This document shows positions 4,945 to 29,210 of a stretch of DNA of 29,210 bases, piece after piece; within the stretch, counting starts at the first letter, position 1, and every line of letters starts with the position of its first letter. Position numbers and translations under genes: made by a program. The notes below the pieces were generated by a model. The model was not told where the DNA came from, ran no database searches, and saw nothing but the letters and a program-made list of their open reading frames with translations. The stretch comes from an uncultured Rhodospirillales bacterium (GTDB lineage Bacteria; Pseudomonadota; Alphaproteobacteria; UBA9219; RFNS01): contig CAZBSB010000002.1 of NCBI GenBank assembly GCA_964494535.1, positions 539-29,748 on the forward strand, written 5' to 3'.

Positions 4945-4968
4945 TGGCCTGACAAAGCCTTGTCCGGC

Positions 4969-4997
4969 AAAGGCGCGGTCGCCAGCCGCGCCTTTTT
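4969..4997 (+). terminator. Rho-independent terminator after gap
   Basis: AAAGGCGCGG-TCGCCAG-CCGCGCCTTT-TT: perfect 10-bp stem followed by a T run. Confidence 0.8.
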
Positions 4998-5055
4998 GCT
5001 ACCGTCAAACCACAGAAATAAGCTATAGTGCGCGCTTGTTTGAGCGCGGAAACCG

Positions 5056-7839: not shown

Positions 7840-7942
7840 TCTTTGTCGCAAGCCTCGCGGGCTTTTGCTGCGGCGACGGAAGCGGTTGTCTTGGCCGTTA
7901 TCATGAGCAGATGCGCGCTGATATTTTGACAAAGTGCCGCCA

Positions 7943-8890: not shown

Positions 8891-9060
8891 TGCTGGCAGG
8901 TTGCACCGCACAGAGGCCAAGACGCTTCCTCACACTACTTCCCCCTCTGCAACAGTCAGAAAGGCTTGCGGCTAGCCCGGTAGATACGCACCGTGTCATT
9001 TTCAAAATGACAGTCACGCACACCTGCAAACCACTTCCTAATCTGGAAAGTAATTTTGGC

Positions 9061-9519
9061 CTAAGCCGCTGTGGCCGTCGCTTCGTTGATGAGCAAGCGA
9101 TAGAGCGCGTCTTTATCGCGGGCTTGGCGGCAATCGGTGCAGAAGTCTGGGTTGCGGAGGATGCGCGACACTTCCGCTAAGGCGCGTAGATGGTCGGCGC
9201 CGGCTTCGGCGGGGGCGAGCAGGGCGAAGACGAGGTCAACCGGCGCACCGTCGGCGGCGCTGAAGTCCAAGGGTTGATCCAGCAGCGCCACGCAGCCATA
9301 GACGCGGCTGATGCCGCCGATGCGGCCATGGGGAATGGCCACGCCGTTGCCCATGCCGGTGGTGCCCAGCTGTTCCCGCTCCCACAGCGTGTTGACGATG
9401 GCGTGGCTGCTGAGTTCGGTGTCCGGCGCCAGGCAGTCGGCGATTTCCTCAAACAGCTGTTTGCGGCTGGTGCAATCCAGGCCGATGAGAATATGGGCGG
9501 GGGCAAGCAAATCCTGCAT
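9061..9519 (-). CDS. ptsN: PTS IIA(Ntr)-like nitrogen regulatory protein
   Basis: Motifs EREQLGTTGMGNGVAIPHGR, DGAPVDLVFALLAP, HLRALAEVSR; lies after hpf. Confidence 0.95.
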   Translation of the reverse strand: MQDLLAPAHILIGLDCTSRKQLFEEIADCLAPDTELSSHAIVNTLWEREQLGTTGMGNGVAIPHGRIGGISRVYGCVALLDQPLDFSAADGAPVDLVFALLAPAEAGADHLRALAEVSRILRNPDFCTDCRQARDKDALYRLLINEATATAA

Positions 9520-9531
9520 GGTAGGAACTCC

Positions 9532-10146
9532 TCAACCCGTCTTGCTCTGGCGCGGGGTCTGATTGACGGCGATGTGCTGCGCGGGGTCAACCCAGCCGAT
9601 ATGGCCGTCGGCGCGGCGGTAGATCATGTTCAGCTGGCCGTGCGAGCGGTTGCGGAACAGCAAGGCGGGCAGATCGCCGAGATCGAGGCGCATCACGGCT
9701 TCGCTGACGGTCAGCATTTCAATCGGCGTGGTCATTTCGGCAACGACGACGGGATTGGCCGGCGCTTCTTCCGCGGTTTCCGCTTCGCCATGCAGGACAT
9801 TGTATTGCGCCATGACGGCGGCCTCGGCGGCGGGCGGCGGCGCATCTTGGCGGTGGTGATCTTTCAGGCGCGTCTTGTGGCGGCGCAGGCGCTTGCCCAT
9901 TTTGGCCGAGGCTTCGTCAAACGCCACATAGGGGTCGTTGGCGCCGGCGGTGCTTTGCAGCGTGATGCCGCGGCCGGCGTGAACCAGGATATCGGCCTGG
10001 AACAAATGCGATTGGCGCGAGAAGGTGACGTGGGCGTCTATGGGGGTGCTGAAGTATTTCTTGACCGTCTCTTGCAAATTATCCGCGACGTGCTGGCGCA
10101 GCGAGTCGCCGACATCGAGCTGCTTGCCTTTGACCGTCAATTGCAT
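9532..10146 (-). CDS. hpf: Ribosome hibernation promoting factor, long HPF/RaiA
   Basis: Motifs MQLTVKGKQLDVGDSLRQHV, KRLRRHKTRLKDHH, EAVMRLDL, YRRADGHIGWVDP. Confidence 0.95.
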   Translation of the reverse strand: MQLTVKGKQLDVGDSLRQHVADNLQETVKKYFSTPIDAHVTFSRQSHLFQADILVHAGRGITLQSTAGANDPYVAFDEASAKMGKRLRRHKTRLKDHHRQDAPPPAAEAAVMAQYNVLHGEAETAEEAPANPVVVAEMTTPIEMLTVSEAVMRLDLGDLPALLFRNRSHGQLNMIYRRADGHIGWVDPAQHIAVNQTPRQSKTG

Positions 10147-10261
10147 GTTCCCGCTCCCTGGTTGGATGCCGCTTGGCGCGGCAGACCCTATCTGGCTGAC
10201 TATAGCATAGGGATGGCGGCGCCCAAGCGGATTCTTGCCGCAGGGTCGCCAAAAAAAATGC

Positions 10262-11767
10262 CTAACGCGCTGATTCTGAAACTATTCCCGCCGCGCCTGC
10301 GGCCGAACGGCGACGCGCGGCGGAGGAAGGGATGTGCATCGCTTCGCGGTATTTGGCGACGGTGCGGCGGGCGATGGCGATGCCTTCCTGCTGCAACAAC
10401 GCCGCGATGCGATCATCGGGCAAGATGGCGTTCGGCGCTTCGGCCTCGATCAGGGTTTTGATGCGGTGGCGCACGGCGGTGGCGGCCAGGGCATCGCCGC
10501 CATCCGTGGCGGCGATGGCGTTGGTGAAGAAATATTTCAGCTCAAAGATGCCGCGCGGCGTGGCGATATATTTGCTGGTGGTGACGCGGCTGATGGTGGA
10601 TTCGTGCATCGCCACATCCTCGGCGATCTGGCGCAGCGTGAGCGGGCGCAGATGCGTGACGCCATGGACGAAGAAATTGTCCTGCTGCTGCACGATGGCG
10701 CTGGCGGTCTTGAGGATAGTGGTGGCGCGCTGATGCAGCGCCTTGACCAGCCAATTGGCCTGTTGCCAGCGTTCCTGGATATAATCGCGCTCGGCCTTGA
10801 TTTTTACGCCGGCGGTCAGGCGCTGATAATAATGTTCGTTGGCGAGAACGCGGGGCAGGTTTTCTGGGTTGAGTTCTACCTGCCAGCCGCCGCCGGGCAG
10901 GGGGCGCAACAACACATCGGGTATCAGGGTCTGCGTGATGTCATGCGCGAAGGCCTGGGCGGGGCGCGGGTTGAGACGCTTGAGTTCCGTCAGCATGTCC
11001 GCGAGGTCAAGCGCGTCCACGCCACACAGCTGCTGCAGCTTTTTGTGGTCGCGGGCGGCGACAAGCGGCAAATTATCGAGCAAAGCGGCCATGGCCGGGT
11101 CGTAACGGTTTTGCTCGCGCAGCTGGAGCGCCAGGCATTCCGCGAGGCCGCGGGCGAAGATGCCGACGGGATCGCAGCGCTGCAGTTTGGCGATAACGCG
11201 GTCAAATTGCTCCGGCGTCGCTCCCAGTTGGGCGCGCACTAAATCCAACTCGGGCGGCAGGAAACCGTTGTCGTCCAGCATATCGAGTAGCGCAATGCCG
11301 ATGAGGCGCTCGAGAGGATCGGCGAAGTCGCAGTCTATCTGGGCGCTGAGGTGGTCGCGCAGGCTGGTGGCGGCGGGCAGGGTTTGCTCGAAAGAAAAAT
11401 CATCATCGCTGATGTTGTGCGCCGCTGTGCCGCTGGGGCGGTCGGACGCCCAGACATTATCAAAGTCGGTGTCCAGCGGGGTTTCTTGGGCGAAAGCGTC
11501 CGGCTCCGTGCGCGGGGTTTCAGCGAGCGGAGCGTCGAAAGCGGCGGGTTCCGGCTGTTCGGGTTCGGTCGGCACGGTTTCGTGCATGGCGGGCGCGTCG
11601 TTGTCGGTTTCCGCGCGTTCGAGCAGCGGGTTGGTCTCCAGCTCCGTTTGCACGAAATCCTGGAGTTCAAGGTTGGACATTTGCAACAGCTTGATGGCTT
11701 GCTGCAATTGTGGCGTCATCACCAAGGACTGGGACTGACGGAGATCAAGGCGCTGGTTCAGGCTCAT
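10262..11767 (-). CDS. rpoN: RNA polymerase sigma-54 factor
   Basis: Motifs MTPQLQQAIKLLQMSNLEL, HESTISRVT and the RpoN box ARRTVAKYRE. Confidence 0.98.
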   Translation of the reverse strand: MSLNQRLDLRQSQSLVMTPQLQQAIKLLQMSNLELQDFVQTELETNPLLERAETDNDAPAMHETVPTEPEQPEPAAFDAPLAETPRTEPDAFAQETPLDTDFDNVWASDRPSGTAAHNISDDDFSFEQTLPAATSLRDHLSAQIDCDFADPLERLIGIALLDMLDDNGFLPPELDLVRAQLGATPEQFDRVIAKLQRCDPVGIFARGLAECLALQLREQNRYDPAMAALLDNLPLVAARDHKKLQQLCGVDALDLADMLTELKRLNPRPAQAFAHDITQTLIPDVLLRPLPGGGWQVELNPENLPRVLANEHYYQRLTAGVKIKAERDYIQERWQQANWLVKALHQRATTILKTASAIVQQQDNFFVHGVTHLRPLTLRQIAEDVAMHESTISRVTTSKYIATPRGIFELKYFFTNAIAATDGGDALAATAVRHRIKTLIEAEAPNAILPDDRIAALLQQEGIAIARRTVAKYREAMHIPSSAARRRSAAGAAGIVSESAR

Positions 11768-11819
11768 GCGCCGACTTTACGGGGCAGGCGTTAACGGTTT
11801 CTTGCCAAACGAGTGAATT

Positions 11820-11835
11820 TGGCACCAGATTTGCA
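11820..11835 (+). promoter_or_regulatory. Sigma-54 -24/-12 site pointing away from rpoN
   Basis: TGGCAC-CAGAT-TTGCA is an exact match to TGGCAC-N5-TTGCW, 53-68 bp upstream of the rpoN ATG. Confidence 0.7.
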
Positions 11836-11916
11836 TAAAATTTGCAATGAGCATGATTGACCAATCAGAGTGACTACGATTTGCCACACAGAGCACTCAA
11901 ATAGGTAAGGGTGTTA

Positions 11917-11933
11917 CTTAGAATAATTCTAAT
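11917..11933. promoter_or_regulatory. Fur-family operator (Irr ICE/PerR-like) upstream of ahpC
   Basis: cTTAGAATAATTCTAAt: perfect 15-bp dyad, 15/17 match to the ICE consensus TTTRGAAYNRTTCYAAA. Confidence 0.6.
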
Positions 11934-11939
11934 TTACCC

Positions 11940-11968
11940 TTGGCAAAGCGTCACGACCGGCCTATAAC
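11940..11968 (+). promoter_or_regulatory. Sigma-70-type promoter for ahpC-ahpD
   Basis: TTGGCA-N17-TATAAC. Confidence 0.55.
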
Positions 11969-12038
11969 ACTGCCATGCAGCGCTGGCAGTCTAAGCCGGA
12001 CGCAGCAAAACCGTTAACCCAAGCAGGAGTTTCGCCCG

Positions 12039-12578
12039 ATGTTGACGATTGGTGACCAGTTTCCGCAATTCGCCATGACTGCCGTGACCGGCAATGATTT
12101 GAAGAGCGCCTTCAAGGACGTGACCAACCAGACCTATAAGGACAAGTGGCTGGTGGTGTTCTTCTGGCCGAAGGATTTCACTTTCGTCTGCCCCACCGAA
12201 ATCGCTTCCTTCGGCAAGATGAACAAGGACTTTGCCGATCGCGGCGCGCAGCTGCTGGGCGCTTCCATTGACAGCGAATTCGTCCATCTCGCCTGGCGCA
12301 ACAGCCACGCTGATTTGAAGAATCTGCCGTTCCCTATGCTGGCCGACATCAAGCGCGAGTTGAGCCAGGCGCTGGGCATCATGGACAAGAATGCCGGCGT
12401 CTCCATGCGCGCCACCTATATCGTTGACCCGCAGGGCATCATCCGCTTCGTCTCGGTGACCGATCTCAATGTCGGCCGCAACACGCAGGAAGTGCTGCGC
12501 GTGCTGGACGCGCTGCAGAGCGACGAGCTGTGCCCCTGCAACTGGCAGAAGGGTCAGGACACGCTGAAGGCGGCCTGA
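12039..12578 (+). CDS. ahpC: Peroxiredoxin AhpC (AhpD-coupled type)
   Basis: Peroxidatic motif WPKDFTFVCPTEI; C-terminal DELCPCNW; AGGAG SD. Confidence 0.96.
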   Translation: MLTIGDQFPQFAMTAVTGNDLKSAFKDVTNQTYKDKWLVVFFWPKDFTFVCPTEIASFGKMNKDFADRGAQLLGASIDSEFVHLAWRNSHADLKNLPFPMLADIKRELSQALGIMDKNAGVSMRATYIVDPQGIIRFVSVTDLNVGRNTQEVLRVLDALQSDELCPCNWQKGQDTLKAA

Positions 12579-12649
12579 TCGCTTGATGAACCAATCCAGG
12601 CCGCGCAACGCCATCATGGTTTGCGCGGCCTTTTTTCTGGGAGATAACG

Positions 12650-13201
12650 ATGAATATCGAGACCATCAAAGACCGTTTGCCGGACTATGCCCGCGATATC
12701 CGCCTGAATCTCGGCGGCATCACCACGATTGCCAGCCTGAACCCGCAGCAGCTCTGGGGCTGCGCCGTGGCCGCTGCCGCCGCTTGTCGCAATCCGGCGC
12801 TTTACCAGGCCGTGCTGGCCGAAGCCGCGCCGCACCTCTCGCCGGAGGCGCTGCAGGCTGCCAAAATCGCCGCGTCCTTGATGGCGATGAACAATATTTA
12901 TTATCGCTTCACCCATCTGGTGGGCAACGCGCAATATCGCAACATGCCGGCGCGCCTGCGCATGACGGCACTGGGCAACCCGGGCGCGGACAAGCTGGAT
13001 TTTGAACTGTGGTCGCTGGCCGTCTCCGCCATCAATGGCTGCGGCATGTGCATCGAAAGCCATGAGCATGAAGTGCTGGCCAAGGGCGCGACGGCGGAGA
13101 TGGTGCAGGACGCCGTGCGCATCGCCGCCATCATGCACGCCGCCGCCGTGACCTTGGAGATGGAAGCAGCCGCGGGCAGCACACTGGCCGCCGCGGCCTA
13201 A
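12650..13201 (+). CDS. ahpD: Alkyl hydroperoxide reductase AhpD (CMD family)
   Basis: Motifs LPDYARDIRLNL, MAMNNIYYRF, AVSAINGCGMCIESH (CxxC). Confidence 0.95.
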   Translation: MNIETIKDRLPDYARDIRLNLGGITTIASLNPQQLWGCAVAAAAACRNPALYQAVLAEAAPHLSPEALQAAKIAASLMAMNNIYYRFTHLVGNAQYRNMPARLRMTALGNPGADKLDFELWSLAVSAINGCGMCIESHEHEVLAKGATAEMVQDAVRIAAIMHAAAVTLEMEAAAGSTLAAAA

Positions 13202-13204
13202 ACC

Positions 13205-13927
13205 TTACGCATTGGCGCCGCCATCCACCGGAATGGTGGCGCCGGTGACGTAGCTGGCCTCGTCGCTGGCGATGAAGGCGATGACGTTCGCCACCTCTTC
13301 CGGCTTGCCGGCGCGCTTCATCGCCGCCACTTGGTCGGCGCCGTCCGGCAGCATGTCGGTGGCGATGGGCCCGGGCAGAATGGCGTTGACCGTGATGTTT
13401 TGCAGCGCCAGATCCTGCGCCCAGCCGCGCGTCATACCCGCCACCGCGAACTTCGTCATGGCATAGGCGCTCACGCCCGGGAAGATGCCGCGCTCACCCA
13501 GCACACTGCTGATATTGATGATGCGGCCGCCGGCTTTCAGGTGCTTGATGGCCGCTTGGGTGGTGGTGAAGACCGCGCGGACATTGACATTGAGCTGATG
13601 CTCAAACTGCGCCGCGTCAATCGCGCCGATGGCGCCGCCGCCTTCGAACACGCCGGCATTGTTGACCAGGATATCGAGCTTGCCGAACTGCTTGACCACG
13701 GTCTCCACCATCGCGCCCATGGCATCCGGCTGGCCGGCATCGGCCTTGATGACCAGGGCTTTGCGCCCCAGTGCCTTGATAGCTTCCGCCACCTTTTCCG
13801 CCGCTGCCGCGGATTTGCTGTAGGTCAGCGCGACGTCCGCCCCTTCCTGCGCCAGTTTCAGCGCCGTAGCGGCGCCGATGCCGCGCGCCCCGCCGGTGAC
13901 CAAAGCGACCTTATTGACTAAACGCAT
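13205..13927 (-). CDS. Classical short-chain dehydrogenase/reductase
   Basis: Motifs TGGARGIG, NNAG, YAMTK (YxxxK), PGPIATDM; GAGGAG SD. Confidence 0.93.
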   Translation of the reverse strand: MRLVNKVALVTGGARGIGAATALKLAQEGADVALTYSKSAAAAEKVAEAIKALGRKALVIKADAGQPDAMGAMVETVVKQFGKLDILVNNAGVFEGGGAIGAIDAAQFEHQLNVNVRAVFTTTQAAIKHLKAGGRIINISSVLGERGIFPGVSAYAMTKFAVAGMTRGWAQDLALQNITVNAILPGPIATDMLPDGADQVAAMKRAGKPEEVANVIAFIASDEASYVTGATIPVDGGANA

Positions 13928-14031
13928 AACATTCTCCTCGGATGAATGGATTATCGACCTACATCAAGTAGGTGCAGGCCTGTCGGTTTCAAGGACGGCT
14001 AAACAGCGCAGATTGCCGCAGCAGATTAAAG

Positions 14032-15099
14032 CTAAGCCGCCAATGCTTTATAGACAGTGGCCAACGCATGGCTCTCGCGGCTGGCTGCGCGCAACGCTTC
14101 CAGGGCGCGCGCCTGCTTGGCTGCTTCACCCGCCAGCTTCGCCACCAGCCTCTCCGTCTCACGCCAGTAAAGCTCACGCGCCTGAATGAGCGCGAAGCAT
14201 CGCCCTGGCCGGATCAACGCGTCATCGAGATCGCCGATATTCGGCAGATTGGTGGAAAAGATGATCTTCCGCCCCTGCGCCCGTACCACGCCGTCGGCAA
14301 TCGCCAGAAACCGATGCAGATGCTCGTTGCCTTCCGCGCGCGGCCGCAAAAGATGGTCGGCATCCTCCACCACGAAGGCGTCGTCATAGCCGGTGATGAA
14401 TTTGACGTAGATTTCGTCATTCTCCAGCGCGCGCTTGTCCCCGGTATAGAGCGCCTGCGCCTCGCCGCCATTGCGCCGCGACAGCGCGCCTAGAATGGCG
14501 CGGATCAGGCGCGTCTTGCCGGTGCCCGGCGGTCCCTGCAGCACCAGCACGGTTTCCGGCGCCGCGATATAACGGGCGACAAAATCCTGCACGCCGCCGG
14601 TGATTTCGGGATAGGCCTCGTCATGCAGAACATCATCCGCCATCTCCTCGATGCTGGCGCTTTCCAATTCATTTTTTCCAGTCAGAAAATGCCAATCGAT
14701 CGAAAACATCGGCTCACGGATGCGCTGCGCCTCGACCAGCGCCAAAACTTTTTGTTTTGCCGTCTCCGCCTGCGCAATGCTCTCTGCCCAAAGGTGAAAG
14801 CGGCAGGAGCAGTAATCTGCCTTGCGGCTGCCTTCCGCCGTAATGAACAACCCCGGCGCGTCCAGGATGACCGTGTTGGCGCCGACGCGCTGCGCCGCCC
14901 AGCCCAGGCTGAGCGCGAAATCGTCGAATAAAGCCTCTTGCTCGCGGCGCGCCGCGAACCGCAGCGTGCGGTGGACGGGATAGCGCGAGACGCCCGCTTC
15001 CAACGCCTGCGTCAGCCGCGTCTTGAGCAGAAAATCCGTCAGACCCCAGACCTCAAGCGCGATATTGGGCTGGCAGTTGCGTGCGGTATTGTTTTGCAT
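14032..15099 (-). CDS. Stand-alone single-domain AAA+ ATPase with uncharacterised N-terminal domain
   Basis: Walker A GPPGTGKT, Walker B FVVEDAD, SRH STN...LDDALIRPGR. Start chosen at ATG 15099 because of AAGAGG upstream; the ORF track starts at 15129. Confidence 0.85.
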   Translation of the reverse strand: MQNNTARNCQPNIALEVWGLTDFLLKTRLTQALEAGVSRYPVHRTLRFAARREQEALFDDFALSLGWAAQRVGANTVILDAPGLFITAEGSRKADYCSCRFHLWAESIAQAETAKQKVLALVEAQRIREPMFSIDWHFLTGKNELESASIEEMADDVLHDEAYPEITGGVQDFVARYIAAPETVLVLQGPPGTGKTRLIRAILGALSRRNGGEAQALYTGDKRALENDEIYVKFITGYDDAFVVEDADHLLRPRAEGNEHLHRFLAIADGVVRAQGRKIIFSTNLPNIGDLDDALIRPGRCFALIQARELYWRETERLVAKLAGEAAKQARALEALRAASRESHALATVYKALAA

Positions 15100-16528: not shown

Positions 16529-17365
16529 GTGGCGTATTCGAAGGAACGCTACGGCTTCTCCAAGCGGCGGGCTTGCCGAGTGGCCGATGCCTCACGACGG
16601 CGGATCAGCTATCAATCACGCAAGGACGACCATGCTCTACGCGAAGCGATGCGGCGTATCGCGGCTGAGCGGCGGCGGTTCGGCTATAAGCGGATTGCGG
16701 TGATGCTGCGCCGTGAAGGGCATGTTCACAACCTGAAGAAGATATGCCGCCTCTACCGTGAAGAAGGACTGATGGTGAAGCGCCGGAAGGGCCGCAAACG
16801 GGCCCCTGGCACACGGTTGCCGTTGCCGAAGCCGGACAGCCTTACTCAGGTGTGGTCGCTGGATTTTCTGAGCGACCAACTCTCGGATGGCCGCCGGTTT
16901 CGTATTCTGAGCGTCATGGATCAATGCAGCCGGGAGTGTCTGACGTTGGCGGCGGACACGTCGACTGGCGGGGCGCGGGTTGCCCGTGAGTTAGATGTCC
17001 TTGTGGCTCGTTACGGCAGGCCGCTTTGCATCGTCAGTGACAATGGCACCGAGCTGACCAGCCGCGCTATTCTCCTCTGGGCACAACAGAACGGCGTCGA
17101 ATGGCATTACATCACACCGGGCAAGCCCAGGGAAAACGGCTTCACCGAGAGCCTCAATAGCAGGATCAGGGATGAATGCCTGAACGAGCCAGTGTTCGAG
17201 AGCCTCGCTGCCGCTCGGCGGCTCATTGCGACGTGGCGGCAGGATTACAACAATATCCGGCCCCATGGCAGCCTCGACAACCAAACCCCGGCGGCCTGCC
17301 GCGCCGGTCTGCGCTCGACTCTTGCGGTCGCGCAGCCCGTCGCTTGCTCATGGAGCGGAACATGA
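16529..17365 (+). CDS. IS3 transposase OrfB (DDE domain), normally expressed as an OrfAB fusion
   Basis: Motifs [40 protein letters not shown]. Confidence 0.92.
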
Positions 17366-17842: not shown

Positions 17843-18157
17843 AGGGTTGCTTAGTGCCCGACTTCATTCCGTTGTCTATGACATAAACAATTGATTTTTA
17901 TTCCAGAATAATTTGGTGGACCGACCAAGGTCATTCTGGGCACTTTTGGTTAATAAATACGTTTTTTGCATAAATTACCGCGCCTTGCGTGCGTTGAGCC
18001 TCAAGCCAAATTCAATAACAAGAGAGGTCTGTCGTAGATAAGTTTCCTTATATACGACAGAACCACAAGAGAACAAATGGATCGGATCGATCCGAACTAT
18101 CTCAAGGTGAGCGTCTCAAGTTGTAACACTAGAAGATTGTTTGGATACTTTAAGGGA

Positions 18158-18171
18158 TTGATGCAGATCAA
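18158..18171. promoter_or_regulatory. FNR/DNR box upstream of the phasin-like gene
   Basis: TTGAT-GCAG-ATCAA is a perfect TTGAT-N4-ATCAA. Confidence 0.8.
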
Positions 18172-18292
18172 GGATAAATCGTCAGACTCAATCCAAGCTT
18201 GCAGTAGGAAGGAGTACGCCAGGTGCTTGACTGGACGCCTCAGCCCCGTGCAGGTCGTTAACGATGGGATAATCGGTCAGAGGAGAACTAAT

Positions 18293-18772
18293 GTGACCAA
18301 TCAAGCAGGACAAGCAAAACAAAAAACGACGTTTGCAGATCAGCCGGATGAGTTCGTAACGGCATCTGCTCTGGCTGATGCGGCGGAAACTGAGAACGCG
18401 ACACCGGGGACATCGTTCGATGAGATTTTGGGATCATACAAAATGATGGCGGGAAGTGCGTGGCAGCATCTGGACACAATTAGTGTTCAGCACATGCAGA
18501 CCTGTCTGACAGTTACGGACCAGACAATGGCGAACGTTGATAAGATGACGGGTCTGGCGCTTGCTTTTGCGCGCGGCACGATTGCACAAGCGGCATCGGC
18601 GACACCGCTGACGCCAGTGTGGCCGGTTCCTGGCGAGTGGCTGGCGACGAACAAGAGCTTCTGCGATAGTGCGATCCGGCAACTCGAAATGGTGCTGGCG
18701 CTGCAGAAAAAGCTTACCGAAAGCGCAATGCTGCCTATTCGGCGTTCCGTCAGCAGGAATTCTCAAGGTTAA
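18293..18772 (+). CDS. Phasin-like (PHA granule-associated) helical protein
   Basis: GTG 7 nt after GAGGAG. The amphipathic pattern (TMANVDKMTGLALAFARGTIAQ...DSAIRQLEMVLALQKKLTESAMLPIRRSV) resembles PhaP. The longer ORF from 18077 would run through the FNR box and is probably not real. Confidence 0.5.
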   Translation: MTNQAGQAKQKTTFADQPDEFVTASALADAAETENATPGTSFDEILGSYKMMAGSAWQHLDTISVQHMQTCLTVTDQTMANVDKMTGLALAFARGTIAQAASATPLTPVWPVPGEWLATNKSFCDSAIRQLEMVLALQKKLTESAMLPIRRSVSRNSQG

Positions 18773-19969: not shown

Positions 19970-20314
19970 CTAGGAAGCTTGCGCAGCCTCCTGTCGTGGT
20001 CGCTTGTCGTTGCGGATATCGACCTGTACGATGAGCTCCAGACCACCGCTCATCAGACGTATGCCATCGCGATTCCTGCCGATGTTTCTGAGTAACGCTA
20101 AGGCTTCCTTGGGGAGTGTGAGAGTCAAAGCAATCGTTTGGCCGCTGTTGGTTGCGGCGAAGTGCGGCTGTTGACCGTCTTGCAAGATTTCGAGACCGAT
20201 GGCGAGGGGACGAGTCGGCAGCGCCATGCGCAGTCTCTGGCCAGCTTCCAGCTGCTGGAGATCGTCGGGCGATATTTTGCAAGTAAGGGAATGCTCGGCA
20301 AGCTTGAGATTCAT
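19970..20314 (-). CDS. Uncharacterised 114-aa protein, last gene of the moa operon
   Basis: Its ATG at 20314 overlaps the mobA TGA (ATGA). The sequence MNLKLAEHSLTCKISPDDLQQL...LELIVQVDIRNDKR looks protein-like. Confidence 0.7.
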   Translation of the reverse strand: MNLKLAEHSLTCKISPDDLQQLEAGQRLRMALPTRPLAIGLEILQDGQQPHFAATNSGQTIALTLTLPKEALALLRNIGRNRDGIRLMSGGLELIVQVDIRNDKRPRQEAAQAS

Positions 20315-20835
20315 GATTGGGTTAACTCCTGCCATTCTGGATGGGTGTTGAAGTTCCGCATAAAACCCGCAGCGCCGTCCGGGAGAGCGATTGGCTTGAT
20401 TGCGTACAAAGCCAGAAGCTCACGAACCGAAGGCGCATGGCTGGGGCGGTATGGCGGCACAAAATAGGCGGGCAGGGGATAATCCCGGTAATAGGATCCT
20501 CCCGGCTGAAGGAGCAGCCGTTGCAGGAGTTCGGCGTTCAGCAGCGGCATATCGACCGGCACGAACAGGTACCCCGCCGGGGCGGGGTTGGTTGTCATGA
20601 TATTGGCCATGGCAATGCCTGGCCCCTGAAAGGGTGTGTGGTCGGGCAAGCCATCATAACCTTGAACGGTGCCGCTGATCAGGGGCTGGGCAATACCAAT
20701 CTGCTGCAGCAGGGCAATCATATGCGCGACCAATGGCTGGCCACGATAATCAAGCATGGCTTTGTTTTGCCCCATCCGTGATGAGCGCCCCCCGGCGAGG
20801 ACGACCCCCGCGATCGATTGCTGCGCCTTAGCCAT
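20311..20835 (-). CDS. mobA: Molybdenum cofactor guanylyltransferase (compact MobA-like)
   Basis: Motifs LAGGRSSRMGQNKA, FQGP, VPVDMP, NFNT. ATG 20835 overlaps the end of moaE. Confidence 0.85.
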   Translation of the reverse strand: MAKAQQSIAGVVLAGGRSSRMGQNKAMLDYRGQPLVAHMIALLQQIGIAQPLISGTVQGYDGLPDHTPFQGPGIAMANIMTTNPAPAGYLFVPVDMPLLNAELLQRLLLQPGGSYYRDYPLPAYFVPPYRPSHAPSVRELLALYAIKPIALPDGAAGFMRNFNTHPEWQELTQS

Positions 20836-21265
20836 TGAGCGAGTGCCCCGGCAACCAGGCGCTTTTACCGTCCAGGTAGTGTTCCTGCTTCCATATCGGA
20901 AGCCGGGTTTTGATGGCTTCGATGACATGACGACATGCCGCAAAGCAGTCCGCCCGGTGCGCCGTACTCACCGCGATGAGAACGCTGATCTCGCCAACCG
21001 CCAGCTGCCCTTGAAAATGCGCCACATAGAAATGGGCGCCCGGCCACTGGGTGCCTCCTTCCTCACAAATGGCCTGCATTGTGCGGAGCGCGAGCGGTCC
21101 ATGAACATCATAAGTGATGCCGCTGACTTGCTTGCCTGCGTGGTGGTTGCGCACGACACCCGCAAAAAAATCGATGGCCCCGTGTCCGGGGTCGCGCACC
21201 GCATCCAGCGCGGCACTCATCGTGAGTGGTGTTTGCAGTATATGCACGGCGATTCGTGACGGCAC
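20828..21265 (-). CDS. moaE: Molybdopterin synthase catalytic subunit
   Basis: Motifs GAIDFFAGVVRNH, LAVGEISVLIAVSTAHRADCF, IKTRLPIWKQE. Confidence 0.95.
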   Translation of the reverse strand: MPSRIAVHILQTPLTMSAALDAVRDPGHGAIDFFAGVVRNHHAGKQVSGITYDVHGPLALRTMQAICEEGGTQWPGAHFYVAHFQGQLAVGEISVLIAVSTAHRADCFAACRHVIEAIKTRLPIWKQEHYLDGKSAWLPGHSLNG

Positions 21266-21267
21266 GG

Positions 21268-21516
21268 CTAGCCTCCACAGACCGGCGGCAGGATGACAAG
21301 CGTGCGAGAATCAACCGCGAGTTGAGCGTCATTGGACAAAATTGCGATATTGTCCGCGAGCACCGAGTCTTCGACGAGTTGGCGATGCTCAGCGCCCAGC
21401 GCACGCCATAACGCTGTCTTGAGCGTAGCGACGGTCGAACCGGCGGGGATTTCCAGCTCTATTCCGCTCCCCATAGTGCGAAACACGCCAAAATATTTGA
21501 TATGAACTGTTGTCAT
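21268..21516 (-). CDS. moaD: Molybdopterin synthase sulfur carrier
   Basis: MTTVHIKYFG...VILPPVCGG, with the C-terminal di-Gly; lies between moaC and moaE. Confidence 0.88.
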   Translation of the reverse strand: MTTVHIKYFGVFRTMGSGIELEIPAGSTVATLKTALWRALGAEHRQLVEDSVLADNIAILSNDAQLAVDSRTLVILPPVCGG

Positions 21517-21530
21517 CTTGCTGTCCGCAA

Positions 21531-22544
21531 TCAAGATTGTTGTTTGATTCTGCTGAGAGCCGTGCCGATAAAGGGCCGCAGAATATCCCAGCACTCTCGA
21601 ACAGCCTTCAGGCTGCCTGGCAGGGCAATAATCAGCGTCCCATCCTTCATGCCGGCGGTCATCCGCGATAACCAGGCCGTCTCCGTGATGTGCTGGCTTT
21701 CCTGCCGCAGCAGGTCGCCCAGACCATCCAGCATTTTATCGCATAATGCGGCCAACACATCGGGGGTGACATCGCGGGGGCCGGGGCCCGTGCCCCCGGA
21801 GGCCAGCAGGATATCGGGTTGATGCTGGCGAATGATCTGGCGCAGCGAAGCGGCAATTGTGGTCATATCGTCAGGCACGACCTGGTAGCAGGCGACGTCG
21901 GCTCCGGCCGCGGCGAGTGCTGTGCGCAGAAAAGCGCCAGATTCATCGGCATAGGTGCCGCGGCTGGCCCGGTCGCTCATGACCAGCACTGCCGCGCTGG
22001 TGCCGGCCAGCTCGTTTTGCGGCAATTGCTGCCGCAGCCAGTCGGGAATTCCAGAAGGATTAATCCAGAGTCCGCTTTTACCCCCGCTTTTGACCAGCAG
22101 CCGAATAGTGTGAATGGATAAATTGGGGTCCACCCCTTTGGTCAAATCCCAGAGCGTCAGCAATGCCGCCTGGGTGCCGCAAAGCGCTTCCATCTCGACA
22201 CCTGTTTTGGCATGAGCGCGCACCTGGCAATAGGCAATGACGGCCTGGTCGTCGTCCTGGAGCTCAAAGTGGACGGTTGCTTGATCGAGCGGCAGCGTAT
22301 GACAGAGCGGTATCGTATTCGGGGTATTCTTGGCGGCCATGATGGCGGCTGCCTCTGCCAGGGCGAGGACATTGCCCTTTGGCAACGTACCGGCCTTCAG
22401 GGCGGAATATGCTTCTGTTCCCAGCGCAATGCTGCCGCTTGCCACCGCCATGCGCCAGGTCGGACGTTTGCGTCCAACATCAATCATCTTGAACTGGGCA
22501 ACGCAGGTATCAGGAAACTGCAGGAAAGCCGAACTGGGCATCAT
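21531..22544 (-). CDS. moaC: Bifunctional MoaC plus MogA/MoaB fusion
   Basis: N-half has MIDVG.K, IPLCH, KTGVEMEAL. C-half has VMSDRASRG...DESG, GGTGPGPRDVTP, LPGS. Confidence 0.93.
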   Translation of the reverse strand: MMPSSAFLQFPDTCVAQFKMIDVGRKRPTWRMAVASGSIALGTEAYSALKAGTLPKGNVLALAEAAAIMAAKNTPNTIPLCHTLPLDQATVHFELQDDDQAVIAYCQVRAHAKTGVEMEALCGTQAALLTLWDLTKGVDPNLSIHTIRLLVKSGGKSGLWINPSGIPDWLRQQLPQNELAGTSAAVLVMSDRASRGTYADESGAFLRTALAAAGADVACYQVVPDDMTTIAASLRQIIRQHQPDILLASGGTGPGPRDVTPDVLAALCDKMLDGLGDLLRQESQHITETAWLSRMTAGMKDGTLIIALPGSLKAVRECWDILRPFIGTALSRIKQQS

Positions 22545-22549
22545 GATGA

Positions 22550-23539
22550 TTATCCTCCGATTGACGCCAAATGATGGGTCGCGCCGCTGTCTTGATGATG
22601 CAGCCCGTGCCCGGCGCGTTTATGTTGCAGGAGACTGACGATCCGGCTCTGCAGCTCCGCACCCTGCTCGTCATGCTGCAGCCAGCGCCGTAGTGAATAG
22701 CCTTCCTCTCCAAACAGGCAAAGGTGCAGATTGCCGCGTGCCGAAACCCGCAGGCGATTGCAGCTCTGACAAAAATCCTTGCCATAAGGGGCAATGATGC
22801 CAATGCGCCCTATGCCGCCCGGATGCATATATTCGATTGCCGGTCCGTCGTCATGCGCACGGATTGTCTGCTGCCACCCGCGCGCCCGCAGCGCACTGGT
22901 AATAAAGTCACTCGAGACATGATACTGCGCGAAATAGTCCTTGTTATCCAATGTCCGCATAAGTTCGATGAAGCGCAGGGTGAGATTATTGGTAACGACA
23001 AAATCGATGAAGGCATCCAGCTCGCTGTCATTCACGCCCTTGAGCAGAACCGTATTGATTTTGATCTTCTGAAATCCGGCATCGCGGCAGGCGGCAACCC
23101 CATGCAAAATTTCATTCAGTCGGTCATGGCCGGTGATATGACTAAAAATCGCGGGACGGAGCGAGTCGATGCTGATATTGATGGATTTGATGCCTGCGGC
23201 CGCATACGCAGCGGCGCGCTCACGCAGCCGGTAGCCGTTCGTTGTGACCGCGACCGTCTGGATGCCAGGAATACGACTGACTGACCGGGCGATTGCGACA
23301 AAATCCGTTCGTAAAGTCGGCTCCCCGCCGGTGAGGCGAATTTTTTTCATCCCTAATGCTGAAAAGGCTGTCACTAGTCGTGTAATTTCGTCCAGCGACA
23401 GAAAATCGTCGCAGCCTGATTTTGTGTAGCCGTTGGGTAGACAGTAGCTGCAGCGAAAATTACAAACGTCCGTCAGCGACAGACGGAGGTAATAAAATCG
23501 GCGACCGAAAGCATCCGCCAGGCCGGTGTTCGCTGTCAT
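22550..23539 (-). CDS. moaA: GTP 3',8-cyclase MoaA (radical SAM)
   Basis: Motifs YLRLSLTDVCNFRCSYC, FCQSCNRLR...LHLCLF and a GG end. The true start is ATG 23539, after AAGGAG. Confidence 0.97.
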   Translation of the reverse strand: MTANTGLADAFGRRFYYLRLSLTDVCNFRCSYCLPNGYTKSGCDDFLSLDEITRLVTAFSALGMKKIRLTGGEPTLRTDFVAIARSVSRIPGIQTVAVTTNGYRLRERAAAYAAAGIKSINISIDSLRPAIFSHITGHDRLNEILHGVAACRDAGFQKIKINTVLLKGVNDSELDAFIDFVVTNNLTLRFIELMRTLDNKDYFAQYHVSSDFITSALRARGWQQTIRAHDDGPAIEYMHPGGIGRIGIIAPYGKDFCQSCNRLRVSARGNLHLCLFGEEGYSLRRWLQHDEQGAELQSRIVSLLQHKRAGHGLHHQDSGATHHLASIGG

Positions 23540-23544
23540 ATGGC

Positions 23545-23647
23545 ATCTCCTTTCCAGACAGGGAGGCCGCGGCGTTTCCCCCGCAACCCCGGCCAAGAAG
23601 CCATATCGGTGACAACCGACTTAGGCTCAATGGCTTCGGAGCGATCC
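23545..23647 (-). promoter_or_regulatory. Moco (molybdenum cofactor) riboswitch-like leader of moaA
   Basis: mRNA reads AUCGCUCCGAAGCCAUUGAGCCUAAGUCGGUUGUCACCGAUAUGGCUUCUUGGCCGGGGUUGCGGGGGAAACGCCGCGGCCUCCCUGUCUGGAAAGGAGAU. It carries the CUCCGA, CCUAAG, UGGCC, GAAA-loop arm and CCUCCC...UGGAAAGG signatures, and the SD lies in the basal stem. Confidence 0.85.
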
Positions 23648-23706
23648 GGCGTTCTTCTCCGGATAATTCTTCAGGCGCATAGTGGCGGTAAAGCGCCTGG
23701 CGTAAC

Positions 23707-23720
23707 TTGACCACAATCAA
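23707..23720. promoter_or_regulatory. FNR/DNR box between the moa operon and the Crp/Fnr regulator
   Basis: TTGAC-CACA-ATCAA within the dyad ACTTGA-N6-TCAAGT; -10-like hexamers at class II spacing on both strands. Confidence 0.8.
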
Positions 23721-23785: not shown

Positions 23786-24541
23786 ATGCCGCAGTATGTG
23801 AGCCTGAGGATGCAACAGCAAGTGCAGATCATCATGGATATTGCCCGACTCGTAAAGAACACTGCAATGTTTCAAAGCATTGAAGATACCGATCTCGCCT
23901 TGCTGCTGGAGCGTGCGCATCAGCGCCCCTATCAGAAGAACCGTGAGATCTTTGCCATGGGCGATGTAGCGGAGGCCTTCTATGTCGTTCTTAAAGGTTG
24001 GGTGAAGCTGTATCGCTTGTCGCGCGATGGCGGAGAGTCGGTTATTCATGTCCTCGGCCCCGGCGAGTCCTTTGCAGAAGCGGCCGTGTTCAATAACAAC
24101 AGAACCTATCCCGTTCATGCTCAGGCGCTGGAAGAGACTGTGCTGCTGGAAATTCCACGCAGCTTCTTCGTGCAGAAAATTGAGGGGGACAGTCAGTTCG
24201 CGTTACGTATCCTTGCCGCAATCGCATCACGGCAGCACTATCTGGTACAGCAAATCGAGCAGGTCACGACGCGGACGGCACCACAAAGAATTGGAGCCTT
24301 CCTGCTAAGATTTTGTGAACACAAAGAGGGTAGTGCGCGTGGTTTCTGGACGGTCAATCTGCCCTATGACAAATCGGTCATCGCCCATCGGCTTAGCATC
24401 CGGCCAGAGACATTCTCGCGTGCCCTGGCAAAACTATCGCCCTATGGCGTGAAGACCAATCCCAGCGGGGAGATAACGATTACCGATATGATGGCGTTGA
24501 CGGATTATTGCGATATCTCGCTGTTTGGCAAGCCGTGCTGA
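23786..24541 (+). CDS. Crp/Fnr-family regulator, DNR/NnrR-like (no FNR Fe-S Cys cluster)
   Basis: Motifs GWVKLYRLS.DG.E, GESFAEAAVF, and HTH LPYDKSVIAHRLSIRPETFSR (ExxSR). Start uncertain (23786, 23810 or 23834). Confidence 0.88.
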   Translation: MPQYVSLRMQQQVQIIMDIARLVKNTAMFQSIEDTDLALLLERAHQRPYQKNREIFAMGDVAEAFYVVLKGWVKLYRLSRDGGESVIHVLGPGESFAEAAVFNNNRTYPVHAQALEETVLLEIPRSFFVQKIEGDSQFALRILAAIASRQHYLVQQIEQVTTRTAPQRIGAFLLRFCEHKEGSARGFWTVNLPYDKSVIAHRLSIRPETFSRALAKLSPYGVKTNPSGEITITDMMALTDYCDISLFGKPC

Positions 24542-25742: not shown

Positions 25743-26540
25743 CTATTGCACGAGAGGCGAATTTGCTGCCTCGAAATTATAGCCGCTTATCTGGGCGCGC
25801 CCGGCAAGGAGCGTGACATACTGATGGAAGGCTCGGTTCCAGCACTGCTCGTTCAGATATTCTTTGATCCAGGTGGCTACCGCAGAAAATGGCAACTGCC
25901 GCCCTTCGGCGCGTTTGTTGACGCGAATAATATGGTAGCCAACGCTCGTGGCTACCGGCTCTTTGCTCAGTTCACCCTCCTGCATCTGCAGGAGCGCGCT
26001 TTCAAATGCCAGCATGGTTTGCCCGTGGCTGATTTGCCCCAAGTGTCCCCCCGCGGACGCCGAGGAGCATGCTGATTCCGATCGTGCCAGCTGTTCGAAT
26101 AGCCCTGGCTCGGCGCGCAGCCTGGTCAAAGCAAGGTTGGCGCGCTCAAGGGCTTCGGCGCGCACCTTGGCCTGTTCTGGCGGCGCGAGGTAAAGAATAT
26201 GAGACACATCAAAGATTGGCGAGGTCAGGAACTTTTTCTGGTTGTTCTCATAGTAACGCAGGCAGGTCGCCTCGTCCGCCTCCGGAATTTTAATCTCTGA
26301 CTCCAGAAGATTATCAATGATCTGGTCTAAGTCTTTAATATTGTCCTGTCTTGAAGCTGACAAATAGCCCGCCTCTGTGGCGCGTTGCAAAAGCAATTCG
26401 CGGATGACCAGCGAGCGTTTGGCCGCATGTTGCGCCTCCGTGAGGCTGCCAGCTGGATGGTATTGCACCTCGGCATCAATATCAGTTTCAGATATTTTGC
26501 AGCCATTAATGATAATACCCGGGGTTAATGAGCGCATCAC
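25743..26540 (-). CDS. PpiC/parvulin-type peptidyl-prolyl isomerase (NifM-like, nar-associated)
   Basis: Motifs VSHIL, FEQLARSESACSS...GGHLG, FE.AL, PVATSVGYHII; overlaps the narI stop. Confidence 0.9.
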   Translation of the reverse strand: MMRSLTPGIIINGCKISETDIDAEVQYHPAGSLTEAQHAAKRSLVIRELLLQRATEAGYLSASRQDNIKDLDQIIDNLLESEIKIPEADEATCLRYYENNQKKFLTSPIFDVSHILYLAPPEQAKVRAEALERANLALTRLRAEPGLFEQLARSESACSSASAGGHLGQISHGQTMLAFESALLQMQEGELSKEPVATSVGYHIIRVNKRAEGRQLPFSAVATWIKEYLNEQCWNRAFHQYVTLLAGRAQISGYNFEAANSPLVQ

Positions 26541-27223
26541 GAAGCCCTCTTGCGGACAATCTGGTAAGGCCGGAACACAAAGCCGAGCGGGGCGCTCAAC
26601 ATATGAACCAGCCGTGTGAAGGGGAAGACCAGCAGGATGAATAAGCCAAGCGTGATGTGCAGTTTGAATACCAAGGCTGTGTCAGCGATAAATTCATGCG
26701 CTCCGCCGCGGAAGGTCACAATGTGCTGCGCCCACTCCATAAACTTGACCATCTCATGACCGTCCAGATGCTGCATGGATACAGTGATGGTGCATAAGCC
26801 AATCAGAAGTTGACTCAGCAGCAGGAAGAGCACGGCAATATCGGCAAAGGAACTATTGGCCCGGATGCGCGGATCAAAGAGTCGCCGATGGAGCAGGAGC
26901 AGCAACCCCACAAGGCAAAAGATGCCGGCAATGCCGCCGGCCGTGATGGCCAGAATCTGTTTGGCACCGTGTGAGACCCCCATGGCGTCAAAAACCGCGA
27001 TGGGGGTAAGCAGCCCGACAAAATGCCCGCCGAGAATGACCAGGATACCCGTATGGAAGAGGACGCTGCCCCAGATGAGCTGGCGGCGACGCAGGAGCTG
27101 GCTTGATTTGCTGCGCCAGGAGAATGGGTCGCGATCAAAGCGCAGCAGTGTGCCAAGCACGCAAGCGCCGAGCGCAATATAAGGAAAAATCTGGAACAAG
27201 AAAAAATCTAGACCGCTACTCAT
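26537..27223 (-). CDS. narI: Respiratory nitrate reductase gamma subunit (cytochrome b)
   Basis: Motifs FPYIALG, RFDRDPFSWRSKSSQLL, LFHTGIL, HITLG, FPFTRLVH. ATG 27223 overlaps the narJ TGA. Confidence 0.96.
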   Translation of the reverse strand: MSSGLDFFLFQIFPYIALGACVLGTLLRFDRDPFSWRSKSSQLLRRRQLIWGSVLFHTGILVILGGHFVGLLTPIAVFDAMGVSHGAKQILAITAGGIAGIFCLVGLLLLLHRRLFDPRIRANSSFADIAVLFLLLSQLLIGLCTITVSMQHLDGHEMVKFMEWAQHIVTFRGGAHEFIADTALVFKLHITLGLFILLVFPFTRLVHMLSAPLGFVFRPYQIVRKRAS

Positions 27224-27930
27224 ATCTTGACCTCCTGTGTCGCGCTGAGACGTTCTTCGATCGTGGCCAGCATGGCCTGAGCCTTCGGACAACCGTCGGA
27301 AATGCCGGTCGTTTGTGCTGTGTTGGTGAAGGCAAATTGCTCTTCCCACGCCGCGTCAAGCTCGGCAGCGGCAGCGGGGGCGCCTGAAGCCTGCTGCAGA
27401 GCTATCGCCAGCTGGGCGGGATCAGGGGCGCGTACCGCCATTTCGACCAAGCCGTCAAACAGAACGGCATAGGGAGATTGGCGTCGATTCAGCCGTTCAC
27501 CAATCGCGGCGACGACATTGACGGCGCTATCTAGATGGCCGCGGACAACTTCAAGCGGCTGCGTGCTAAGAAATTCGAGGAACAACGGCAAGTAGTCAGG
27601 CAGCTCATCGGTAGCGATATCGAGACCGGATTGCCGGTAGAGTTCCAGCAAATCGACCATGGCCTGCCCGCGATCGCGTGAATCGCCGTGAACGTGTTCA
27701 AAAAGATGCAGCGAGAGGGAAGGCGTGCGGTCAAACAGATCCGTATACGCCTCCTGCAGGTCGAGCAGATCTTCGTCCTGCTGTGAGCGGAGTAAATGAA
27801 TAATCTTTTTCTGTGTCGGGACGGTCAGCCAGCCTTCCTGCTGGAGAAGCCTCGCACAGCCATCAATCATTCCAGGCTCCTGTGATTCCGGATAGGACAG
27901 CAAACGGCCAATGACTTTCAACGTCAGCAT
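27220..27930 (-). CDS. narJ: Nitrate reductase maturation chaperone
   Basis: Motifs LLSYP, LQEAYTDLFDRTPSLSLHLFEHVHGDSRDRGQAMVDL, ELPDYLPLFLEF. Confidence 0.96.
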   Translation of the reverse strand: MLTLKVIGRLLSYPESQEPGMIDGCARLLQQEGWLTVPTQKKIIHLLRSQQDEDLLDLQEAYTDLFDRTPSLSLHLFEHVHGDSRDRGQAMVDLLELYRQSGLDIATDELPDYLPLFLEFLSTQPLEVVRGHLDSAVNVVAAIGERLNRRQSPYAVLFDGLVEMAVRAPDPAQLAIALQQASGAPAAAAELDAAWEEQFAFTNTAQTTGISDGCPKAQAMLATIEERLSATQEVKI

Positions 27931-27939
27931 TGATATCTC

Positions 27940-29210
27940 CTATCCGCACTGCCCGCCGCAACAACCACCGCAGCCGCTTGATTTCTTGGGCGGAGACTCG
28001 CTCGCATTGCGGGGTGCCAGCTCCGGCTCGTAGTGATCGCGGGTAAAAATGGTGTTGATACGGTTGTCCTTGGTTGAGCCGCTCTGGCCACGGCTTTGTT
28101 TCGGCTGTTCAAACAGGTCAAACTTGCTGTTGCTATGGCCAGCACACCCATTGCCGAAGCTAAAGCCACAACCGCCGCTTTCGCCATAAGCGTCCAGCGT
28201 TTCCTCACGGTGCCCGGTCGGAATGACATACCGATCTTCATAATTGGCAATCGCCATAATCTTGTACATGTCTTCGACCAGATCTGGCGTCAGCCCGGAT
28301 GCATAGAGTACCCCAGTGTCCACTTTGCCTTCGATATGTTTGCCGCGCATGTAGTGACGCATGGCCATCATGCGCTGCAGCGCCAGACGAACAGGTTGTT
28401 CTTTGCCGCCAGTCAGCATATTTGCCAGGTACTTTATCGGAATGCGCATATCATCCAGGTTTGGCATGACCCCATTCTGGGGAGCATCCAGTTTCCCTGC
28501 GTTGAGCGCAGATTGAACCGGCGAGAGCGGCGGAATATACCAAACCATCGGTAGCGTCCGGTACTCCGGGTGCAGGGGGAACGCCACTTTCCAGTCGATT
28601 GCCATTTTATAGACGGGCGATTTCTGCGCCGCTTCAATCCAGTTGTCCGGAATACCATCGCGCCGTGCCTGGGCGATGACTTCGGGGTCATGAGGATTGA
28701 GGAAAATGCGACACTGCGCCTCATAAAGGTCTTCGTTCTTCTCCACGCTGGCGGCTTCTTCAATCCGGTCTGCGTCATAGAGAATGACACCAAGATAGCG
28801 GATGCGACCAACGCAGGTTTCCGAGCAGACCGTCGGTTCGCCGTTTTCAATGCGCGGATAGCAGAATGTGCACTTCTCTGCCTTGCCGGTCTGCCAATTG
28901 TAGTAAATCTTTTTGTAAGGGCAGCCAGAGATACACATGCGCCAGCCGCGGCATTTATCCTGATCAACCAGAACAATCCCGTCTTCTTCGCGCTTGTAAA
29001 TCGAGCCGGACGGGCAGGATGCAACGCAGGTCGGGTTCAGGCAGTGCTCGCACAGACGCGGCAGATACATCATGAAAGTGTTTTCAAATTCACCATAGAT
29101 GTCTTTTTCCACATCGGTGAAGTTGTAGTCTTTCTTGCGATGCTCAAACTCCGTACCCAGGATTTCTTCCCAGTTTGGCCCCCAATTCACTTTCTCCATC
29201 CGCTGCCCTG
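27940..29210 (-). CDS. narH: Respiratory nitrate reductase beta subunit (5' part outside the window)
   Basis: Motifs WGPNWEE, LPRLCEHCLNPTCVASCPSG, CRGWRMCISGCPY, CTFCYPR, LHPEYRTLPMVWY. The frame is open to the window edge (GQRMEK). Confidence 0.97.
   Translation of the reverse strand, partial: GQRMEKVNWGPNWEEILGTEFEHRKKDYNFTDVEKDIYGEFENTFMMYLPRLCEHCLNPTCVASCPSGSIYKREEDGIVLVDQDKCRGWRMCISGCPYKKIYYNWQTGKAEKCTFCYPRIENGEPTVCSETCVGRIRYLGVILYDADRIEEAASVEKNEDLYEAQCRIFLNPHDPEVIAQARRDGIPDNWIEAAQKSPVYKMAIDWKVAFPLHPEYRTLPMVWYIPPLSPVQSALNAGKLDAPQNGVMPNLDDMRIPIKYLANMLTGGKEQPVRLALQRMMAMRHYMRGKHIEGKVDTGVLYASGLTPDLVEDMYKIMAIANYEDRYVIPTGHREETLDAYGESGGCGFSFGNGCAGHSNSKFDLFEQPKQSRGQSGSTKDNRINTIFTRDHYEPELAPRNASESPPKKSSGCGGCCGGQCG

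Follow-up and report, generated by a model that had tools for sequence, protein, structure and literature searches.

A Moco-family riboswitch lacking P3 precedes moaA, beside nitrate reductase genes, in a clade of Alphaproteobacteria with few known tungsten markers

The moaA leader described here is a genuine Moco-family riboswitch in its known P3-less form, the form that has been proposed to sense the tungsten cofactor (Tuco). It holds the moaA Shine–Dalgarno sequence inside the basal stem P1, heads a moa operon and is conserved among related Alphaproteobacteria. Apart from the single matches discussed below, the sampled genomes carry no tungsten markers. In our view the rule that a missing P3 means tungsten cofactor appears to fail in this clade. 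The RNA lies in a stretch of 29,210 nucleotides, called the window in the following, from a 2.35-Mb MAG (G000) which is 83% complete.

RF01055, the Moco RNA motif, is the only Rfam 15 family that cmscan finds in the whole window. The match is significant (53.4 bits at a gathering score of 36, E = 2.7e-10) and covers model positions 1-135, that is, the full model. The initial annotation had read Moco-riboswitch signatures from the leader and had suggested a covariance-model search with inspection of the missing stem. All signatures are indeed present except P3, which is removed by one clean 16-position deletion; all remaining stems are kept (Table 1). The direct UGGCC-GGG junction, from which the absence of one arm had been deduced, joins P2 to P4 by two nucleotides: the 3′ strand of P2, ending in CUUGGC (23600-23592), is followed only by C-G (23591-23590) and then by P4. 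The window RNA has two mismatches in P2 and one in P4. Both halves of the tetraloop receptor, CCUAAG (23625-23620) and UAUGG (23605-23601), are invariant in 33 relatives, and so is the GGAAAC of P4. CCUCCC and P5 (23563-23554) are followed by AAAGGAG (23553-23547), and the CCUCCC-P5-GGAAAGG core is closed by P1, as is characteristic of the RF01055 family. In P1 the sequence CUCC pairs with GGAG. The moaA Shine–Dalgarno sequence had been placed in the basal stem, and this GGAG, 7 nt 5′ of the moaA AUG (23539-23537), is at the same time the 3′ strand of P1. The position also agrees with the family: the RNA is located directly 5′ of moaA with the Shine–Dalgarno sequence inside P1 as expression platform. 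In 33 leaders GGAAAGGAG is kept, with the start codon 5-10 nt further on. A scan of the window revealed no terminator 3′ of the aptamer, and we therefore take the expression platform to act on translation, as in E. coli.

Table 1. Features of the leader and of its surroundings (window coordinates)
Feature	Position	Strand	Basis
RF01055 Moco riboswitch aptamer, P3-less form	23531..23653	-	cmscan; near-identical copies in two same-genus genomes
P0, 6-bp hairpin AUCCGG/CCGGAU with 9-nt loop, ends 2 nt before P1	23644..23664	-	folding; coordinates
P1 5′ strand CUCC	23638..23641	-	cmscan alignment; invariant or G-U-compatible over 33 sequences
P2 with 11-nt GAAA-tetraloop receptor	23592..23635	-	cmscan; receptor columns invariant in 33-sequence alignment
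P2-P4 linker, 2 nt (C-G), where P3 would stand	23590..23591	-	16 model positions deleted
P4 with GAAA tetraloop cap (23578-23575; GGAAAC)	23564..23589	-	cmscan alignment
P5 mini-hairpin after conserved CCUCCC	23554..23563	-	cmscan alignment
P1 3′ strand GGAG = moaA Shine–Dalgarno sequence	23547..23550	-	cmscan alignment; coordinates
FNR-type box TTGAT-N4-GTCAA, centre 23713.5, between the divergent genes and common to both	23707..23720	-	sequence
-10-like hexamer CACTAT, class II spacing from FNR box	23679..23684	-	relatives: CATACT/CATAAT at +29..+34 from box centre
moaA (GTP 3′,8-cyclase), first gene of the controlled operon	22550..23539	-	TIGR02666 334.5 bits, above cut-off; Radical_SAM and Mob_synth_C
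moaC fused to MoaB/Mog-type domain	21531..22544	-	PF01967 and PF00994
Probable moaD (ORF as listed; true start probably internal)	21268..21594	-	weak ThiS-family match, E = 8.9e-4, below cut-off
moaE	20828..21265	-	PF02391
mobA (ORF as listed; true start probably internal)	20311..20943	-	PF12804
Divergent Crp/Fnr-family regulator, FtrB-like	23786..24541	+	PF00027 and PF13545; best NCBIfam match FtrB, below its cut-off
narH, narJ, narI (respiratory nitrate reductase)	26537..29199	-	Pfam matches

A terminator-like 8-bp hairpin with a U-tract is found inside moaA at about codons 19-25 (23467-23485, minus strand), within the conserved YLRLSLTDVCNF coding stretch. We rejected it as a terminator. 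Conservation of the LRLSLTD codons accounts for part of the stem, and relatives of similar GC content do not have the U-tract. In this stretch the window uses codons ending in U (GUU UGU AAU UUU) despite a GC content of 59%.

The experimentally tested relative is the E. coli moaA riboswitch (Regulski et al. 2008, PMC2408646), an OFF switch which needs molybdenum insertion and has its Shine–Dalgarno sequence in P1. Both RNAs share P1, P2 with the receptor, P4 with the GAAA loop, P5 and the position before a moaA operon, and both appear to combine FNR-dependent transcription with riboswitch control of translation. In contrast to the E. coli RNA, where P3 is present and needed, the window RNA lacks P3 and carries an extra 5′ hairpin, P0, beside P1. 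Further differences are that we found neither a ModE nor a ModA partner for the window and that its operon includes a moaC-mog fusion and mobA. P3 is optional in the family as a whole, as 58 of the 176 original Moco RNAs are without it. In E. coli, regulation was lost once P3 had been deleted from the RNA (PMC2408646). P3-less forms must therefore differ in something else too.

Moco RNAs without P3 have been on record since 2008 (PMC2408646). The window leader, located before moaA in an alphaproteobacterium, belongs to this known type, and for annotation purposes it is an ordinary Rfam match. The alphaproteobacterial setting had been regarded as unusual, a view which we do not share: Hyphomonas neptunium is already contained in the 2008 data, and of 150 families sampled across the class 7 have RF01055. 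The Hyphomonas RNA, compared here by its description only, resembles the window RNA in that it is P3-less and comes from an alphaproteobacterium without identified tungsten genes (PMC2408646).

How widespread are such leaders? In the order of the window, 3 of 60 other genomes have an RF01055 match. Two are from the same genus and P3-less; being nearly identical to the window copy, they hold no covariation information. The third, from another family, has P3. Among the seven positive families of the class survey five have P3, one is P3-less and one gives a weak P3-less match. A search starting from relatives of MoaA added one more P3-less alphaproteobacterial MAG and the P3-bearing leaders of Robiginitomaculum, Kordiimonas and Asticcacaulis. 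The RNAs from all three surveys are located directly before moaA, most of them downstream of an FNR box; the same is true of the P3-bearing alphaproteobacterial riboswitches taken separately (before moaA in 9 of 9, mostly with an FNR box). Finally, an exact-pattern scan of a species-level genome collection for this type of P3-less junction returned 55 loci, about 50 of which are real leaders. These genomes with a P3-less moaA leader are mostly Micavibrio-like or unnamed Alphaproteobacteria. Our literature search, whose coverage was incomplete, found no report on Moco riboswitches in Micavibrio or in the P3-less alphaproteobacterial clade.

All 18 P3-less leaders that were tested exceed the Rfam cut-off (47-75 bits). 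In an alignment of 33 sequences the core motifs are invariant and compensatory changes are present in P4 and the inner part of P2; five positions of P4 have 4 to 8 of them per pair. When applied to the MAFFT alignment, RNAalifold recovered P1, the inner P2 and P4. It missed P0, the outer P2 and P5, which the alignment does not hold in register. In the MoaA tree the P3-less leaders fall into one clade (96% SH-aLRT), which also holds MoaAs of Sphingomonadales without riboswitch. Since this clade is nested within lineages that have P3, the stem need only have been lost once. Some clade members have one hairpin more, which sits in the loop of P5 (about 30 nt) or within P4 (L189, L201; L175, L192, L193, L204, L220). 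In L187, L196, L198, L199 and L207 the change from CCUCCC...GGAAAGG to CCUUCC...GAAAAGG is compensatory in P5.

With 53 bits the window RNA scores below some of its relatives, and given its mismatches in P2 and P4 one could think of a decaying relic that no longer regulates and leaves FNR alone in control. However, the core motifs are invariant over about 50 species, the stems covary and the Shine–Dalgarno sequence is always within P1. We regard decay of the aptamer as extremely improbable.

The riboswitch had been suggested to supply cofactor for the adjacent nitrate reductase (Nar), and the genomic setting fits this suggestion, as the RNA heads the moa operon beside narHJI. Beyond the divergent Crp/Fnr gene follow nnrS, a PpiC-type rotamase gene and then narI, narJ and narH. 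The narG gene of the same bin is on another contig (G000:C15; NarG TIGR01580, 2118 bits). In the stretch 187-14618 this contig further holds moeA, nrdD, two MFS genes of the NarK type, another gene of the Crp/Fnr family, genes for SCP2 and two U32 peptidases (UbiT/U/V-like; oxygen-independent ubiquinone synthesis) and a gene with a multicopper-oxidase domain. Taken with the window, this gene set looks like an island for anaerobic life. In the compared genomes (G001, G119, G192 and several P3-bearing relatives) narG is on the same contig as the riboswitch and within about 10 kb of it.

Several other observations concern the window and its origin. The transketolase of the window shares 60-65% identity with proteins from many Alphaproteobacteria. 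The labels of MAGs of the same genus read "Rhodospirillales bacterium" and "Bdellovibrionales bacterium", the latter order being the one in which NCBI places Micavibrio. Metagenomes of sludge, wastewater and bioreactors, collected in 12 studies, contain the DNA. An IS3-type transposase gene (16529-17365, plus strand; rve, rve_3, HTH_21) marks the border between the left part with 61.5% GC and the nar/moa part with 55% GC. Two open reading frames have no Pfam or NCBIfam match, one of 121 aa which overlaps mobA at the end of the moa operon (19970-20335, minus strand) and one of 231 aa upstream of moeB (18077-18772, plus strand).

A strict consensus scan did not detect a sigma-70 promoter at the leader. 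From the geometry of the FNR-type box and the -10-like hexamer we predict a transcription start near 23672. A near-perfect, mostly perfect, TTGAT-N4-ATCAA box at conserved distance is present in 31 of the 33 related P3-less leaders, and a CATACT-like -10 element is observed at +29..+34 from the box centre in leaders of the clade. Judging by these boxes, dual control by FNR and riboswitch, as for E. coli moaA, is conserved across the P3-less clade. Metatranscriptome contigs from wastewater and biofilm runs match moaA and the regulator gene with at least 99% identity at very low depth; none covers the leader, and at such depth they are uninformative on the transcription start and on P0.

The hairpin P0 upstream of the aptamer had been noticed in the initial annotation, which proposed that it overlaps the 5′ strand of the basal stem and could be the switching element. 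The hairpin itself (23664-23644) is real and conserved. The overlap, however, concerns only the 5′ flank of the RF01055 model, where the three outer consensus pairs are weak (C-G, G-U and C.U), and a competition with P1 is not borne out by the predicted folds. Taken alone, the window P0 is unremarkable (z = -0.4 against shuffles). Of the predicted states, only one forced alternative is without it. We scored each sequence separately for a hairpin that has 5 bp or more, reaches -4 kcal/mol or better, lies within the 30 nt before P1 and ends not more than 5 nt from it. Such a hairpin is present in 26 of 33 clade members and in 22% of random windows taken at these loci; as the sequences are related, a binomial p-value exaggerates the difference. 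The stems vary considerably, for example GCCAUG/CAUGGU, CUGCGGCGG/CCGCUGCGG, UUGCC/GGCAA and ACUGUG/CACAGU besides the AUCCGG/CCGGAU of the window. P0 thus appears to be conserved in the clade as a pairing, a covarying stem, and not as a sequence. In about 20 leaders P0 begins 7-11 nt after the start predicted from the FNR box. In the five to seven clade members without P0 the box is closer, and the transcript would begin at P1. Such a hairpin is missing from 8 of the 9 P3-bearing alphaproteobacterial leaders.

If P0 were the switching element, its 5′ arm, which contains GGAG, and its loop would pair with the 5′ strand of P1 (CGGAG/CUCCG) in the ligand-free state and would set the Shine–Dalgarno sequence free. 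In the window this forced alternative and the aptamer fold are indeed isoenergetic (-58.0 versus -57.9 kcal/mol), and the P0 loops of several relatives are purine-rich. But the 5′ strand of P1 pairs upstream with a probability of only 0.06 in the ensemble of the window and of 0.12 in the mean over 33 leaders, neither the GGAG mimic nor its pairing is conserved while the P0 stems vary freely, and the members which start at P1 have no P0 at all. We therefore rejected this anti-sequestor pairing and think it rather improbable that P0 switches. As P0 and P1 form together in a constrained fold, and in view of the low upstream pairing and the missing conservation of the mimic, P0 is in our folding models probably a static module, neither a competitor of P1 nor the switch. 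It could shield P1, which is short, and the aptamer from upstream sequence; alternatively, it may stack on P1 or guard the 5′ end. That it compensates for the lost P3 is speculation.

We now turn to the metal. The initial annotation correctly stated that arm-less variants were proposed as sensors of the tungsten cofactor. The proposal was based on tungsten genes in 17 of 19 host organisms of P3-less RNAs, the two exceptions being Haemophilus ducreyi and Hyphomonas neptunium (PMC2408646). The rule continues to serve as a diagnostic: in Eubacterium limosum the absence of P3 was taken in 2024 as confirming tungsten dependence (PMC11725836). Applied to the window, the proposal states that the RNA turns off molybdopterin synthesis as tungsten cofactor accumulates. 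P3 is absent, as it demands, and the remaining core is conserved as in the proposed Tuco RNAs. Since MPT feeds both cofactors, P3-less RNAs before moa genes, which are frequent before MPT-synthesis genes anyway, also fit the scheme (PMC2408646), which allows the MPT-synthesis genes controlled here for either cofactor. However, the proposed Tuco RNAs are linked to tupABC, AOR/WOR and tungsten-using anaerobes, whereas the enzyme neighbouring the window RNA is a Nar of the molybdenum type.

Tungsten markers in the host were not found, with one doubtful exception. In the genus of the window (G000-G003) the tungsten-type aldehyde oxidoreductase AOR (PF02730) and WtpA are not detected, ModA is found in 0 of 4 genomes, NarG in G000 and G001, and TupA gives one match. 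This TupA-like gene (G000:C289) could be read as a sign of tungsten use. It reaches 222 bits where the cut-off is 400, no genus-mate has it, and it lies on a contig of 2.6 kb with 73.7% GC, the highest value in a bin of 59.5% GC. We therefore discarded it as probable binning contamination. A second PF00384 gene (molybdopterin oxidoreductase; contig C154, 6.1 kb, 67.7% GC) is suspect in the same way and also probably a contaminant. Both outlier contigs would mislead a marker-gene census.

The 32 P3-less clade genomes, which count as roughly one evolutionary event because the clade is a single lineage, contain AOR (PF02730) once, TupA and WtpA never, ModA three times and NarG 29 times. As these are mostly incomplete MAGs, missing known markers do not prove that tungsten is not used. 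In G119, which is 99% complete, NarG is the only bis-MGD enzyme besides NuoG. The nine P3-bearing alphaproteobacterial genomes, for which the census covers three tungsten and molybdenum markers and NarG, show a similar picture with AOR (PF02730) in 0, TupA in 0, ModA in 8 and NarG in 7. The contrast in ModA (3 of 32 versus 8 of 9) is confounded by phylogeny. Almost all of the P3-less genomes, which are small and Micavibrio-like, lack ModA, TupA and WtpA despite Nar and a full Moco pathway. In most of them a known molybdate or tungstate transporter was not found. Bis-MGD enzymes can carry tungsten in some organisms, and a tungsten-active Nar is known in Pyrobaculum.

P3-less and P3-bearing leaders of this class share regulatory and genomic position, and P3 status shows no link to tungsten. 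The locus had been expected to bear on the rule connecting P3 with the metal, and within this clade our comparisons argue against that rule. Because the P3-bearing relatives occur in the same setting of FNR box and moaA, with NarG in 7 of 9 and neither AOR nor TupA, Moco would be the likely ligand and a missing P3 does not seem to be a reliable sign of tungsten. Together with the marker counts of the P3-less genomes and the probable contamination behind the TupA-like match, this leaves a Tuco sensor very improbable here.

The most economical reading of the gene content is likely that the P3-less RNA reports Moco; it could also report the cofactor part common to both metals. In the latter case a metal-blind aptamer would recognise the pterin-dithiolene part of Moco and Tuco and would report Moco in cells that use molybdenum only. 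Relaxed specificity of this kind would explain why one architecture goes with tungsten genes in anaerobes (PMC2408646, PMC11725836) and with Nar here. On the other hand, the E. coli RNA discriminates against Tuco (PMC2408646), so that the family is able to tell the metals apart, and we give this possibility a small though not negligible chance. A specific response to Moco is the reading that we prefer. To our knowledge neither binding experiments nor a liganded structure have so far demonstrated the ligand specificity of Moco versus Tuco riboswitches.

We suggest the following course of events. Under anoxia an FNR-type activator would start transcription near 23672. The mRNA would carry the static hairpin P0 at its 5′ end, followed by the aptamer. 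When the cofactor is plentiful, the folded aptamer would close P1, pairing CUCC with GGAG, and the ribosome-binding site of moaA would be hidden. The moaA-moaC/mog-moaD-moaE-mobA operon, which would feed the neighbouring nitrate reductase, would then be off. When the cofactor becomes scarce, P1 would open and moaA could be translated. The direction of the switch, with P1 closure by the cofactor blocking moaA translation, is drawn from analogy to the known system. FNR dependence, Moco as ligand and the role of P0 we infer from comparison of the leaders and their genomes. As a whole, a translational OFF riboswitch with an FNR-driven start, P1 closure by the cofactor, Moco as ligand and a static P0 is an explanation in which we have good though not full confidence.

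A further step would be to consider the P3-less and P0-bearing leaders of the Micavibrio-like Alphaproteobacteria as a distinct Moco-sensing subclass in which P0 partly offsets the loss of P3 by giving stability to the short P1 or to the fold. We put this forward tentatively, its chances being somewhat below even. If it is true, metal specificity does not depend on whether P3 has been lost, and the tungsten-riboswitch rule as used, for example, in PMC11725836 would be unsafe outside tungsten-using anaerobes.

In summary, the window locus and roughly 50 relatives provide natural P3-less switches which are coupled to a molybdenum enzyme, and tungsten markers are absent from their genomes. As close relatives with P3 occur in the same context, constructs of both forms would make a clean pair with which the rule can be tested. 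Tungsten metabolism should not be inferred from the RF01055 architecture alone.
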